From positions 20,217-84,216 of IMG/VR virus record IMGVR_UViG_3300001598_000040: 64,000 nt of DNA; one strand, given 5' to 3'. The stretch is from a virus. Lineage: Duplodnaviria; Caudoviricetes. The position numbers and the translations under genes are program-made. This document shows, piece after piece, positions 33,103 to 41,537 of the stretch. Under the pieces are notes generated by a model. That model saw only the letters and a program-made list of their open reading frames with translations. It had not been told where the DNA came from and made no database searches. The stretch's first letter is position 1, and every line of letters begins with the position of its first letter.

Positions 33103-33166
33103 AATGCCATAAAGAGGGATATATGGAAGTTCGTTTATTGCCGCAAAATCCTGCGGCAACAAACCG
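33103..33166. repeat. cassette-boundary module, copy A1 (degenerate 29-bp site plus 35-bp hairpin)
   Basis: ..ATATGGAAGTT then CGTTTATTGCCGC..GCGGCAACAAACCG. Confidence 0.6.
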
Positions 33167-33268
33167 ATCGTTAGGTAGGGGATGAGAGGGAGTACTGATA
33201 AATGGCTTAGGTATGCGGGTTTATGGGAAACACGGGTTTTAGAGCAAAGGGACGAGAATGCGGAAAAA

Positions 33269-33332
33269 GTTTCTATATATGGATAATTTTGGAAGTTCGG
33301 TTTGAGGCTAGCTTCGCGCCGCCCTCAAACCG
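33269..33332. repeat. cassette-boundary module, copy A2
   Basis: GTTTCTATATA-TGGATAA-TTTTGGAAGTT then CGGTTTGAGG..CCTCAAACCG. Confidence 0.7.
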
Positions 33333-33394
33333 CTCAAGCCTTTTGTGCAATTTGCACAAAAAAAGATATGGGAATAATTCCCATATCAGTTACT

Positions 33395-33700
33395 TTATTC
33401 CCTTTTACTTATATCAATTATAAAATCATCGGGATTGACAAAAATTTGAGTAATTGTAATATTTTCATCATATTCAAATTCTTCTATTGTGAGTGCTTTG
33501 CTAAAATTCGTTATAGTATATATTATTTCTGCGTGTTGACCACCATTTGGAAAACAGATAATATAACCGTTCATTTCTTCTCTATCACTCGATAGAAGAT
33601 AAAAATTTCCCTCATCATCTATAAATCCACTACTTTCTAATAAATCAAATTTTTTGTTCAGTTTTATATCTGTCATATTAACTTTTATCATATATAACAA
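33395..33700 (-). CDS. hypothetical protein
   Basis: ORF track; RBS. Confidence 0.55.
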   Translation of the reverse strand: MLYMIKVNMTDIKLNKKFDLLESSGFIDDEGNFYLLSSDREEMNGYIICFPNGGQHAEIIYTITNFSKALTIEEFEYDENITITQIFVNPDDFIIDISKRE

Positions 33701-33739
33701 CTCCTTTTTTTCTCAAGGGGAGTATATACTCCCTTTCCG

Positions 33740-34150
33740 CTATTTACTATCATTCCGTCTAAACTTTAAATCTATTGAATACTTTTTACCTTTATATTCA
33801 AAATTTATCTGTTTCTGCGGGTTGATAATTTCAACATTGTCAGTATTCATTAAATCATTTTTTAGTGCGGTTGATATAAAATCAATTAATTCAATTTTAT
33901 TACTATCAATTTTTTGTGTGCGTGTTGCCTTTCGTCCGTACCCATTAACAACAGTTACAACCTTTGCACAATTCTTTAAGTTTTTAATAGCTTTTTTCTG
34001 CTCTGCGGTTAAATCGTCTTCAGCTTGCTTAGTAGTCATTTTATCAACTTTTTTATCATATTCAATGATGTCTAAAGCTTCTTGCTCTGTGCAACCTAAT
34101 CTTTCAATTAGGTTGCACACTTGGTTGTTTTGATTATTCATCAACTTCAA
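33740..34150 (-). CDS. hypothetical protein
   Basis: ORF track; overlaps the upstream gene. Confidence 0.6.
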   Translation of the reverse strand: MKLMNNQNNQVCNLIERLGCTEQEALDIIEYDKKVDKMTTKQAEDDLTAEQKKAIKNLKNCAKVVTVVNGYGRKATRTQKIDSNKIELIDFISTALKNDLMNTDNVEIINPQKQINFEYKGKKYSIDLKFRRNDSK

Positions 34151-34520
34151 CCTCTGTGGTATCTTCTACCACAAGGCTATAAACCGATGACTTTTTGTCT
34201 TTAGTATTCTTTACTTTACCTTGTGCCACAAGCTCCGTCAATCTCGGTGTTAACTTTGATGTTGTATACTCATAACCTAAAGCTTTAACAATATCAGTAA
34301 CTTTATAAAGCATATTTTCTTCCATAACCGATAGAATTTCATTCTCAATGCTGATAAACTCTTCATTCGTCTTTTTAGCTTTGCTACCTGACTTTTTAGT
34401 TAACAACTCAATTTCGTGATTTGCAAAATCAATAAGCTCTGTTGCAGAATTGTCTTCAACATTTTCTAATACTTCAATAATTGCCTTGTACATTTCTTTC
34501 TTTGTTCTTGAAAATTCCAT
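34134..34520 (-). CDS. winged-helix protein (paralog of 25659-26045)
   Basis: DFANHEIELLTKK...KLTPRLTELVAQGKV...KSSVYSL. Confidence 0.6.
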   Translation of the reverse strand: MEFSRTKKEMYKAIIEVLENVEDNSATELIDFANHEIELLTKKSGSKAKKTNEEFISIENEILSVMEENMLYKVTDIVKALGYEYTTSKLTPRLTELVAQGKVKNTKDKKSSVYSLVVEDTTEVEVDE

Positions 34521-34566
34521 AATTTTACCAAACCTTTCTTTTTTTAAAATATTGTTTATTAGTTTC

Positions 34567-34603
34567 TGTAGGTGTTTTACAAGGTTTTATTCCTACAACT
34601 TGC
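34567..34603 (-). ncRNA. 37-nt predicted H-type pseudoknot in a 5' leader, copy 1
   Basis: GCAAG-U-UGUAGG-AAUAAAAC-CUUGU-AAAACA-CCUACA; a covarying copy lies at 35971-36007. Confidence 0.55.
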
Positions 34604-34651
34604 GGTACGGACACTTTAGTGAAATGAGGTTTTCTCTCATTCACTATAATC

Positions 34652-34680
34652 ATTATATCATACTTTTTTGCAAAAGTCAA
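34652..34680 (-). promoter_or_regulatory. sigmaA-type promoter
   Basis: TTGACT-17bp-TATAAT with extended TG. Confidence 0.8.
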
Positions 34681-34689
34681 TATACTTTT

Positions 34690-39333: not shown

Positions 39334-39683
39334 TCAATCTCCTCGAGCCAATATTTCTTTCTACAATCTTCACAATAATAAATACTACATTGTGATTTAT
39401 TACTTAAATTTGCATCTAAAGCACAAGGAGATATTTGAGAAAATCCATCTTCAGCTATTTTTGTGTTCGGAAACATTTTCAAAAACTCACTTTGTCTTGT
39501 CTTTGGCTGGTGCTTATCAATCCAATCGAGAATTATTTTGTTTGCTTTGTTAATCTCGTCTAAAATGTTTGTTCTGCTATAAAGACAACGAATGTTACAA
39601 ATAGGTCTAATCGGGCATTCCGCACATTCTTTAGCTGTATCACATATTTTCAATGTATCATAAATCATAGCTTTTCTATCCAT
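39330..39683 (-). CDS. Cys-rich protein (paralog of 28243-28767)
   Basis: CAECP..., KTRQSEFLKMFP...ISPC...CEDCRKKYW. Confidence 0.6.
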   Translation of the reverse strand: MDRKAMIYDTLKICDTAKECAECPIRPICNIRCLYSRTNILDEINKANKIILDWIDKHQPKTRQSEFLKMFPNTKIAEDGFSQISPCALDANLSNKSQCSIYYCEDCRKKYWLEEIE

Positions 39684-40086
39684 TAGTTTAACTCCTCTTC
39701 ATAGTAATTATTAATTTTAATTCTCAAATCTTTTAAACATTCATCACATAATTTAATATTTGCTTTTGGATATTCATTGAAACGAATTGTATTAATTTCA
39801 TCAAATAATTGATTACATCCAACACACAAATGTTTTGTTTTTAAAATATTCACCATTCTATATCAACTCACTTTCTTGATAATACCCCTACAATTACAGG
39901 AACAACTGTAACCATATAATAAGAAAATAACCTATCTTTTAAACTAACCGCCAAATTTTCCTTTCCATATTTCTTACAATCTTTATGGTATGCAATTAAT
40001 ATGTATAACAGTATCATTCTTTACCAACTCCTTTAATTTCTTCCCGCTCTTATCATTATATTTTCCTCCTTTCGGAGGGCTGATAT

Positions 40087-40440
40087 TCAGCCCTCCAGCT
40101 CTTCTATAAATCCTTTAAAATTTTGCCAACCTGTATGATAGAATAAAACCGCTTCCATAGTTTCTATATTATGTCCGCCTATCATTACCGCACCTCTAAT
40201 GAAATCCTCAGTGGCAATTCCCATTTCTACCAAATAATCCCACATCTCATCTGCACTTTGAAGAACATTTTCATTTACTTCATTCTCTAAAAATTCGTCT
40301 TCCATTTCATCAAGAAGGTTGTAGTAGTCATCTTCAATATCAATTCCATTTTCAAAATTTCTTGAAAATTCAAGTGATATTTCATCTTCCATACCTCTTC
40401 TTGAAATAATATCGTTTACCATTTGTTCTTGTGTCATCAT
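40087..40440 (-). CDS. acidic hypothetical protein (paralog of 40770-41039)
   Basis: EMWDYLVEMGIATE...IETMEAVLFYHTGW..F..FI. Confidence 0.6.
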   Translation of the reverse strand: MMTQEQMVNDIISRRGMEDEISLEFSRNFENGIDIEDDYYNLLDEMEDEFLENEVNENVLQSADEMWDYLVEMGIATEDFIRGAVMIGGHNIETMEAVLFYHTGWQNFKGFIEELEG

Positions 40441-40473
40441 ATCGACAACTCCTCTCTTTTATTTACTATAGTC

Positions 40474-40502
40474 ATTATACCATATATATATACATTTGTC
40501 AA
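40474..40502 (-). promoter_or_regulatory. sigmaA-type promoter
   Basis: Perfect TTGACA-17bp-TATAAT with extended TG. Confidence 0.85.
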
Positions 40503-40652
40503 TACCTTTTTGAAAAATAATTTAAATTTTTTTTTGATTTGTGAAATATCACCAAACTTTTGCCGTAAAATGTGATAATGTTTGTATATAATGCACAAAT
40601 CCGCATTTTGGGATTATTGGTAAAGACTGGAAGCGTTTCCAAAAGCTGGAAA

Positions 40653-40746
40653 TTTTCCCTATATATGGAAAAAGTGAAACTCGTTTTGTGCGTTAAAATT
40701 CAGCGCGCACAAAACGCTAAAGGTATGAGCCATTTCTTCTCATACC
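40653..40746. repeat. cassette-boundary module, copy E
   Basis: TTTTCCCTATA-TATGGAA-AAAGTGAAACT; CGTTTTGTGCG/CGCACAAAACG; GGTATGAG..CTCATACC terminator. Confidence 0.8.
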
Positions 40747-40769
40747 CTTAGCGTTATTTTGGTGAAGAT

Positions 40770-41039
40770 TTACTGTGCGTGTTTGTCCGCTATAAACTCT
40801 TCAAAAGTGTTATAGCCTGTACAGATGTACAAAATAAGCTCCATAGTTTCAATTATATTGCCGCACGCCTCAGTCATTCTATTAATATCTCTCGCAGTAG
40901 TAAGACCAGTTTCTATAAGGTAATCCCTCATCTCTCCCAAAAGTCTTGAGATGGGAATAAAGTTATCCTCATTGTCATAGTATCCGTCTAAATAGATGAT
41001 GTGCATAAAATTCATTTCAGTATGTGTCATAATAAACAA
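40770..41039 (-). CDS. hypothetical protein (paralog of 40087-40440)
   Basis: EMRDYLIETGLTT...IETMELILYICTGY..FEEFI. Confidence 0.6.
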   Translation of the reverse strand: MFIMTHTEMNFMHIIYLDGYYDNEDNFIPISRLLGEMRDYLIETGLTTARDINRMTEACGNIIETMELILYICTGYNTFEEFIADKHAQ

Positions 41040-41089
41040 TCTCTCTTTTATTAAATTAATGGTTCGTAGCTCTTCTTGACTACACCTAT

Positions 41090-41118
41090 ATTATATCATA
41101 GAGAAAAATATTTGTCAA
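41090..41118 (-). promoter_or_regulatory. sigmaA-type promoter
   Basis: Perfect TTGACA-17bp-TATAAT with extended TG. Confidence 0.85.
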
Positions 41119-41276
41119 TAGATAAAATAAAAGTTTGTATAATCTATACAAGAATACGGCTCGAAATATCAATTAGTTTGTGCAATATGCACAATCATAG
41201 AGGAAATTACCATAATATGGAAATGCTTCCAGAATGTGGCAAATTTTCCCTATATATCAAATTGGTAGAAAAGCCA

Positions 41277-41537
41277 TTAATTGGCTTTTCTTACCACTTC
41301 ACTATCCACTATTTGCCATTCCCGCATATCATCTTTGGTATTACCAATTTTTACCTTTACTGTATCGCCTTTACCAACACTGCTATTTTTGAATTGGTAC
41401 AATTGGTCATATATGGAAATGGTAACTATTCCCTTTTCTACCTTTAACGCTTTTCTCGTGTACTTTGTTCTTGTTGCCTCATATCCCACAACCGCAAAAC
41501 TACCTATCACCAACAAAACCGCTATAACTTTTTTCAT
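41277..41537 (-). CDS. small exported/membrane-anchored protein
   Basis: MKKVIAVLLVIG signal-like N-terminus; OB-like remainder. Confidence 0.6.
   Translation of the reverse strand: MKKVIAVLLVIGSFAVVGYEATRTKYTRKALKVEKGIVTISIYDQLYQFKNSSVGKGDTVKVKIGNTKDDMREWQIVDSEVVRKAN

Follow-up and report, generated by a model that had tools for sequence, protein, structure and literature searches.

Stem-loops at the 5' terminus are known to stabilise Bacillus subtilis RNAs, such as the ermC and aprE leaders, against 5'-end-dependent decay by RNase J1, and the put sites of HK022 and the nut sites of lambda (boxA/boxB) are promoter-proximal RNAs acting in antitermination. Convergent promoters, of which the pR/pL pair of coliphage 186 is an example, oppose each other by polymerase collision and RNA pairing (PMC5001618, PMC5423467), and the promoter early stem-loops (PeSLs) of T4-type phages are short composite regulatory repeats which in a large phage separate early genes that are small and variable (PMC2839356, PMC4122927). 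The element considered here, which shares traits with all of these, occurs as six same-strand copies plus one truncated copy at 33.1-41.3 kb of a window of 64,000 nucleotides, i.e. bases 20217-84216 of the 84,216-bp IMG/VR record IMGVR_UViG_3300001598_000040 (all coordinates given for this phage are window positions). The record has a G+C content of 29% and a CheckV completeness of ~54%, and derives from a large, uncultivated phage from gut or rumen. Each full copy, hereafter called a module, is made of a 29-bp site (the 29-mer) followed by a hairpin. As judged from sequence comparison, the element is real, conserved across a phage family and uncatalogued, and is a variant of known phage early-region regulatory cassettes, not a recombination or decoy system. 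More precisely, the module is probably a rightward promoter of sigma-70/sigmaA geometry giving rise to a hairpin-initiated transcript, placed behind every leftward early operon so that convergent promoters would bracket the operons.

Compared with the pR/pL pair of 186, a promoter at the far end of a unit would likewise fire back and operator-like palindromes adjoin the promoters, but the modules are repeated at six operon ends instead of forming one switch, their transcript would start with a conserved hairpin, and interference is here a prediction. As for the ermC and aprE stabilisers, the likeness lies in a stable stem-loop flush with the predicted 5' end of the transcript in a low-GC Gram-positive setting; unlike these leaders, which need neither invariant closing pairs and flanks nor a fixed length, the modules conserve all three across phages. 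Finally, the put and nut sites resemble the module in joining a conserved linear motif to a hairpin near a promoter, in pointing towards late genes and in having terminators downstream. However, the module stems differ within one phage, no N-like protein was identified, and the terminators downstream of the modules face the other way, so that little antitermination would be needed.

Modules behind the early operons

The + strand carries, from 42.6 kb on, SPbeta-like head genes (YonG-like, terminase, portal, YonD-like and YonB-like), and the minus strand, from 42.3 down to 33.4 kb, carries small and mostly orphan genes grouped in operons, the GC skew changing sign at ~42 kb. Each of these early operons has an intrinsic terminator and a promoter of TTGACA/T-17-TATAAT type that is close to consensus and TG-extended, in agreement with the complete minus-strand transcription units seen in the preliminary description. 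Seven leftward early promoters of this type, driving the small early operons, were placed by the promoter scan within 34652..42329 (-), with their -35 boxes starting at 42329, 41118, 40502, 38867, 37611, 36088 and 34680. At all six leftward operon ends, whose terminators lie at 41268, 40720, 39035, 37780, 36408 and 33365, a module follows 5-17 nt further on (6/6) and points back at the terminator, the module at 41.2 kb being truncated. Since a module stands beyond every early-operon terminator and faces back, each early operon would be enclosed between two promoters of opposite direction.

The preliminary description had reported six full copies and a truncated seventh, each full copy being a site followed by a hairpin of 34-36 nt, and pattern, repeat and hairpin scans recovered them all. 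With at most 3 mismatches, the 29-mer pattern is matched at 36326, 38962 and 40653, for a chance expectation of 0.02; repeat families and sequence inspection revealed the less exact copies (37705, 33269 and 33103) and also the truncated one (41244). The site itself is thus real, but the notion of a 29-bp unit was too narrow, since an alignment of whole intergenic regions extends the conserved block ~100-150 bp further left, over TGGAAA repeats, a TTTYGGGA box and a TGTGCA palindrome.

All copies lie on the + strand. Module B, the most readable as a promoter, spans 36319..36354 and comprises TGGAAA (36319-36324), a 17-nt spacer, AAAAAT (36342-36347) and the discriminator GTAAACT; it includes the 29-mer (36326-36354), shares its register with the canonical promoters found in relatives, and is followed by a hairpin at 36355..36390 (hairpin scan, covariation and fold) and by the intrinsic terminator 36408..36425 (-; terminator scan) of the leftward operon ending at 36431. 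Module C has its promoter-like 29-mer at 37705..37733, with a -10-like TAAAAT, and its hairpin at 37734..37768 (hairpin scan and fold; 54.4 bits with R1, a covariance model built from module copies), ahead of the terminator 37780..37801 (-) of the operon ending at 37813. In module D, the promoter-like 29-mer (38962..38990) contains a -10-like GAAAAT and the discriminator GGAAACT, and the hairpin (38991..39024) precedes the terminator 39035..39057 (-; terminator scan) of the operon ending at 39067. The promoter-like region of module E (40647..40681) combines TGGAAA (40647-40652) with the 29-mer (40653-40681); its hairpin (40682..40716), the 3' part of which is 87% identical to that of D (repeat family D20), adjoins the terminator hairpin 40720..40749 (-) of the leftward gene ending at 40770. 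The truncated module F (41214..41257) retains the left promoter block, 81% identical to 36296-36338 (repeat family D6), and has neither -10 box, discriminator nor hairpin, the terminator 41268-41290 coming directly after.

At the left end of the array, two modules stand close together, A1 lying 166 bp left of A2 and adjoining an iteron- and repeat-rich stretch. The promoter-like 29-mer of A1 (33103..33131), read from the sequence and degenerate in its left half, is partly covered by an R1 match at 33120-33169 (39.2 bits), and its hairpin (33132..33166) has 12 pairs, one bulged C and one A.C, with a folding energy of -15.9 kcal/mol (z -5.1). For A2, the promoter-like 29-mer (33269..33297), likewise read from the sequence, overlaps an R1 match at 33286-33335 (41.2 bits), and the hairpin (33298..33332; hairpin scan and fold) stands before a TGTGCA palindrome (33344-33358) and a terminator (33365-33387).

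Hairpins closed by CG...CG are absent elsewhere in the 84,216-bp record, where the six copies are all on the + strand. They fold at -14 to -19 kcal/mol in the window, with z scores of -3.5 to -5.6 against shuffles. The earlier claim that the stems differ and nevertheless stay paired is well supported by an alignment of 12 copies (the six of the window and six of a relative, L033), in which 10 of the 14 stem pairs vary on both sides and 89% of the cells are paired, compared to 36-46% when the partner column is slid, none of 500 shuffles reaching as high a value. Across the family, the stems are 97% Watson-Crick, with 660 Watson-Crick, 9 G.T and 10 A.C pairs counted by a strand-symmetric detector; a previous count of 17 G.U against 1 A.C, which seemed to favour the + strand, resulted from alignment bias. 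The hairpins fall into two length classes, 25-28 nt and 34-38 nt, i.e. about one helical turn apart, and the flanks (AA, T, CG...CG) are invariant and the stem sequences variable. Taken together, the invariant flanks, the CG closure, the two length classes and the near absence of wobble pairs exceed what a mere stabiliser would need, and may point to a specific factor or to a role at the DNA level. On the + strand, no U-run follows the window hairpins, which are therefore not intrinsic terminators in that direction. The Rfam covariance models gave no match to the element, the only matches being ROOL, tRNAs and spurious miRNA matches on tandem repeats. Similarity to a tRNA minihelix or RNase P substrate, with a 3' CCA after the stem, was rejected, CCA being present in only 8/90 copies of the family and the loops not being T-loop-like.

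The 29-mer as a predicted rightward promoter

Relatives of the phage were reached through the 330-aa regulator protein, whose gene (42595-43587, +) opens the late block. With R1, ~50 further copies came to light, spread over more than 30 related contigs and all of them on the regulator/late-gene strand, upstream of the regulator gene and within an early region of opposite strand. A scan for motif plus stem gave 95 copies on the + strand versus 6 on the minus strand, and in a 100%-complete relative of 185 kb only three matches were found, on one strand and clustered in ~8 kb of the early region. The relatives are large gut/rumen contigs that share the divergent layout, and throughout the family the element and the regulator gene are found together. 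More than 470 relatives of that gene are present in IMG/VR, many of them on gut/rumen contigs of 100-200 kb, and the related contigs were binned with many different taxa. Other routes were not productive: exact-pattern scans of IMG/VR and JGI metagenomes for the module returned only chance matches in which the stems were absent, a megablast of the region against GenBank phages gave no match, and the relatives initially found by protein similarity (29% identity) contained no modules.

The central result was obtained by anchoring the 90 distinct copies of the family at the first CG of their stems. TTGACA-17/18-TATAAT is matched at 11 or more of its 12 positions in 26/90 copies, 22 of which are perfect, compared to 0.4% at random positions of the same regions. 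In the canonical family copies, the -10 box ends 7-9 nt ahead of the first CG of the hairpin, and some of the family promoters carry TG-extended -10 boxes. Seven bases separate the -10 box from the stem; they form a conserved GGAAAYT that matches the right end of the 29-mer. In L033, in which the early genes were all called on the minus strand, two module copies have perfect promoters on the + strand. Because family copies hold TTGACA-17-TATAAT in a fixed register before the hairpin, the 29-mer most likely represents the spacer, the -10 box and the discriminator of a predicted rightward promoter, with the hairpin starting at ~+1. The parts would thus be, in order, a -35 box, a 17-nt spacer, a -10 box, the 7-nt discriminator GGAAAYT and the hairpin. 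The register holds in the window copies too, where the boxes are weaker (TGGAAA or GTTAAA; AAAAAT, TAAAAT or GAAAAT) and the best scores are 7-9 of 12; these copies may therefore be weak promoters or factor-dependent ones.

Several observations weigh against this promoter reading. Both the rightward start site and the RNA are themselves predicted features, and 71% of the family copies, including all six of the window, have no good hexamers. In addition, the discriminator is better conserved than the hexamers, an unusual trait in an ordinary host promoter and a hint that something else reads the DNA or the RNA, and the stem pairing displays no strand signal and would suit a DNA-level or two-strand role equally well. 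A + strand terminator lies no further than 60 nt away in only 7/90 copies, so that no defined small RNA can be claimed, and the rightward RNA would generally be antisense and of undefined length. Finally, 6/90 copies also have a leftward promoter face-to-face with the module and abutting the hairpin, and at L131:4987-5011, L161:1761-1786 and L082:1860-1886 the two promoters meet across 25-27 bp, the leftward one being strong. Apart from these counter-indications, a search for TGGAAA-17-DAAAWT sites showed no clustering ahead of the late genes. Small + strand open reading frames (ORFs) behind the hairpins were rejected as coding, being without ribosome sites and antisense to real genes.

The position of the hairpin, 5-17 nt behind each terminator of the window, could also suggest that it acts in the leftward RNA, as a back-up terminator or a stabiliser of the 3' end, the complement of GGAAAYT then providing a short U-run. 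The stems are perfect on both strands, as such a role would allow, and the terminator scan accepts copy D on the minus strand. However, it is the only one of the six window copies to be accepted, and the minus-strand family consensus after the stem, A-R-U-U-U-C-C, contains three U only. Besides, if 30/90 copies of the family face the terminator of a leftward operon, 38/90 have no preceding terminator, some of them standing beside a leftward promoter, and no consistent minus-strand position emerges. As perfect promoters in a fixed register on the other strand would moreover be left unexplained, a role in the leftward RNA is considered unlikely.

It is slightly less likely that the palindrome works as DNA, in the form of a cruciform or a single-strand hairpin read by a phage protein, whether as a structure-dependent promoter element, as a priming or replication signal, or as the target of the regulator 42595-43587. 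Such a role would fit with stems that are almost purely Watson-Crick, with flanks that remain invariant when the stems vary, with length classes separated by about one helical turn, with the family-wide association of element and regulator gene, and with the iteron- and repeat-rich region that adjoins A1 and A2. On the other hand, the element could not be tied to any nuclease, primase or second RNA polymerase; an 847-aa ORF considered as a YonO-type RNA polymerase was dropped, having no family match. Perfect palindromes can also persist through template switching without any DNA-level function, which lessens the weight of the pairing, and a 5' hairpin in the RNA explains the host-type promoters in register more simply.

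Recombination in the mosaic early region

In close relatives, the early region is mosaic and the late region collinear. The preliminary description, which had seen in the modules a possible cassette-shuffling system, proposed to look in related phages for changes of gene content exactly at module boundaries; homology break points turned out to fall at modules in 8/753 cases (1.1%) versus 1.0% for random positions, i.e. without enrichment. Among 58 clean indel junctions, 35 show an overlap of at least 13 nt, and 32 of these 35 lie in the leftward early promoter and ribosome-binding-site leader, where the overlaps measure 13-126 nt (early regions of L129-L142, L120 and L133-L138); a module holds only one of the 58. 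A single exchange between modules can be traced in detail, in that L129 has a 1.1-kb cassette between two modules in the place of which L130 and L131 have one chimeric module, with the crossover in the -10/discriminator core. On these alignments, early-gene shuffling is real in the phage family and is driven mainly by the leftward promoter/leader repeat, which behaves in gene gain and loss as the PeSLs of T4 do, in a phage family of Gram-positive type.

These data also delimit the likeness between the modules and the T4 PeSLs, which the preliminary description had put forward as one of its hypotheses. What stands is that the modules are regulatory repeats, short and composite, set among the small variable genes of a mosaic early region, with a structure conserved above the sequence, and that they can serve as crossover points, as in the one case described. 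What does not stand is the rest of the comparison: the promoter and terminator stem-loop of a PeSL serve the flanking genes, whereas the predicted module promoter opposes them; the module hairpin is located at the predicted transcription start, has no U-run and is no terminator there; and PeSLs are the usual junctions, whereas most junctions here lie in the leftward promoter/leader. The mosaic early region next to a collinear late region and the chimeric module of L130 and L131 could suggest that the modules are mainly recombination cassettes of this kind, between copies of which homologous exchange would shuffle genes. This is nevertheless improbable, considering the absence of enrichment of break points, the concentration of repeat-flanked junctions in the leftward promoter/leader (32/35, against one in a module) and the limited stem sequence common to the window copies, insufficient for an efficient exchange.

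A site-specific variant of this idea, also from the preliminary description, considered the module as a recombination site composed of a dif/Xer-like core and an attC-like folded arm. The 29-mer of copy B resembles the Bacillota dif consensus as given in that description, and the length and structure of the hairpin are indeed conserved. However, the centre of the site has 7 bp and not 6, the arms are not kept, with only 3 copies within 3 mismatches, and an ordinary promoter occupies the same position in relatives. In the same line, the stems do not have the extrahelical bases of attC sites, the only bulge being that of A1, and no tyrosine or serine recombinase (PF00589, PF00239) was matched in the 84-kb record with positive controls, as the first reading of the window had noticed, although at ~54% completeness the absence is not proven. 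This hypothesis was therefore abandoned as very improbable.

The same holds for the proposal that the modules would be solitary mimics of CRISPR repeats, i.e. RNA anti-CRISPRs, each followed by a pseudo-spacer. The geometry of 29 nt plus ~35 nt and the ...AATGTAAAC-like ending of one copy recall the organisation of type I-B arrays. RNA anti-CRISPRs do exist (PMC10651486). Yet the 29-mer, which reads as promoter sequence, varies between copies and between phages and gives way to TTGACA-17-TATAAT promoters in the related phages, most of it would remain untranscribed if it is a promoter, the hairpin stems are all unlike each other, and no CRISPR-type match was obtained in Rfam. A decoy function of this type is thus hardly credible.

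Putative operators, neighbouring features and a possible early-to-late control

The upstream part of the conserved block is exemplified at 36251..36285, where a TGTGCA-N3-TGCACA palindrome is associated with a TTTYGGGA box. Such palindromes are located at 33344-33358, 36251-36265 and 41179-41193, with half sites at 38936, 40592 and ~42410, and TTTYGGGA boxes at 36272, 37652, 38909 and 40601; both recur in every early intergenic region, also in relatives, and probably serve a phage regulator as operators, the winged-helix protein encoded at 34134-34520 being a candidate. Other recurring intergenic elements of the relatives occupy the same places, namely GTTAG-N-CTAAC hairpins and a CCCGGGC box that comes behind the TGTGCA palindrome; elements of this sort are found at L035:640-700, 1709-1810, 3310-3391 and 5027-5096, and GTTAG...CTAAC hairpins in L095 and L033.

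Beside A1 and A2 lie short GAAAATATT-type iterons (31900-32030), a gene for a 110-aa HTH_36-like protein (32316-32648, +) and four 21-bp tandem repeats (32693-32797), a cluster that looks like an origin/initiator or a master regulatory region. Next to it, the tract 32840-33020 is ORF-free and G+C-rich, ends in a T-run on the + strand and has no Rfam match; it could be a non-coding RNA, and a comparable tract is found behind a leftward promoter at L033:5460-5700. Further away, a protein of the family of Thg1-like tRNA-His guanylyltransferases is encoded at 27375-28151 (-), in a phage that also has five tRNAs and a ROOL RNA. Between the terminase and portal genes, a small ORF (46719-47087, +) contains an in-frame TAG and a frame change near 46832-46842; phAss-1, a relative by its portal protein, reads TAG as sense (PMC10607447).

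With regard to the mechanism, the rightward RNA would begin with a flush stem-loop whose closing pairs are C-G and G-C; it would be a non-coding RNA, running antisense to the early operons at their 3' ends. The stem-loop may protect or tag this RNA, which would be expected to be long-lived in a low-GC Gram-positive host, since RNAs paired at their 5' end resist 5'-end-dependent decay. Rightward transcription may insulate the early operons and/or shut them down, through polymerase collision and antisense pairing, and would keep read-through away from the next promoter region; it would head towards the regulator and the late-gene block. Being repeats, the modules might occasionally be used as crossover points. 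Given the weak hexamers (TGGAAA/AAAAAT), the upstream TGGAAA repeats and the TGTGCA palindrome, firing in this phage would probably need a phage factor.

Among the candidate phage factors is the regulator 42595-43587, labelled as a sigma factor in PHROGs. This protein has a helix-turn-helix (HTH) and a zinc ribbon, with an invariant C-terminal CxxC...CxxC motif, and its gene is kept in hundreds of gut/rumen phage contigs; it has no Pfam match, a profile search of solved structures was also empty, and Atlas places it near HTH proteins of the GerE/sigma-70 region 4 type. It is possible, though only as a tentative extension of the promoter reading, that the CG-closed, length-constrained hairpin and GGAAAYT form a recognition element for a conserved phage factor such as this regulator, the units together making a multi-site early-to-late switch. 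Polymerases licensed in this way would run rightward and antisense through every early operon, silencing each of them, and would feed the late genes.

For the phage family, these results have several consequences. A structured element is added that no RNA library holds, and the early promoter/leader repeats appear as the actual recombination points for early-gene swaps, which corrects the integron-like and CRISPR-decoy readings of the modules. An opposing promoter behind every early operon would offer a testable handle on the timing of expression in a large group of uncultivated phages. If true, the multi-site switch would constitute a mechanism of temporal control undescribed for phages of Gram-positive hosts.

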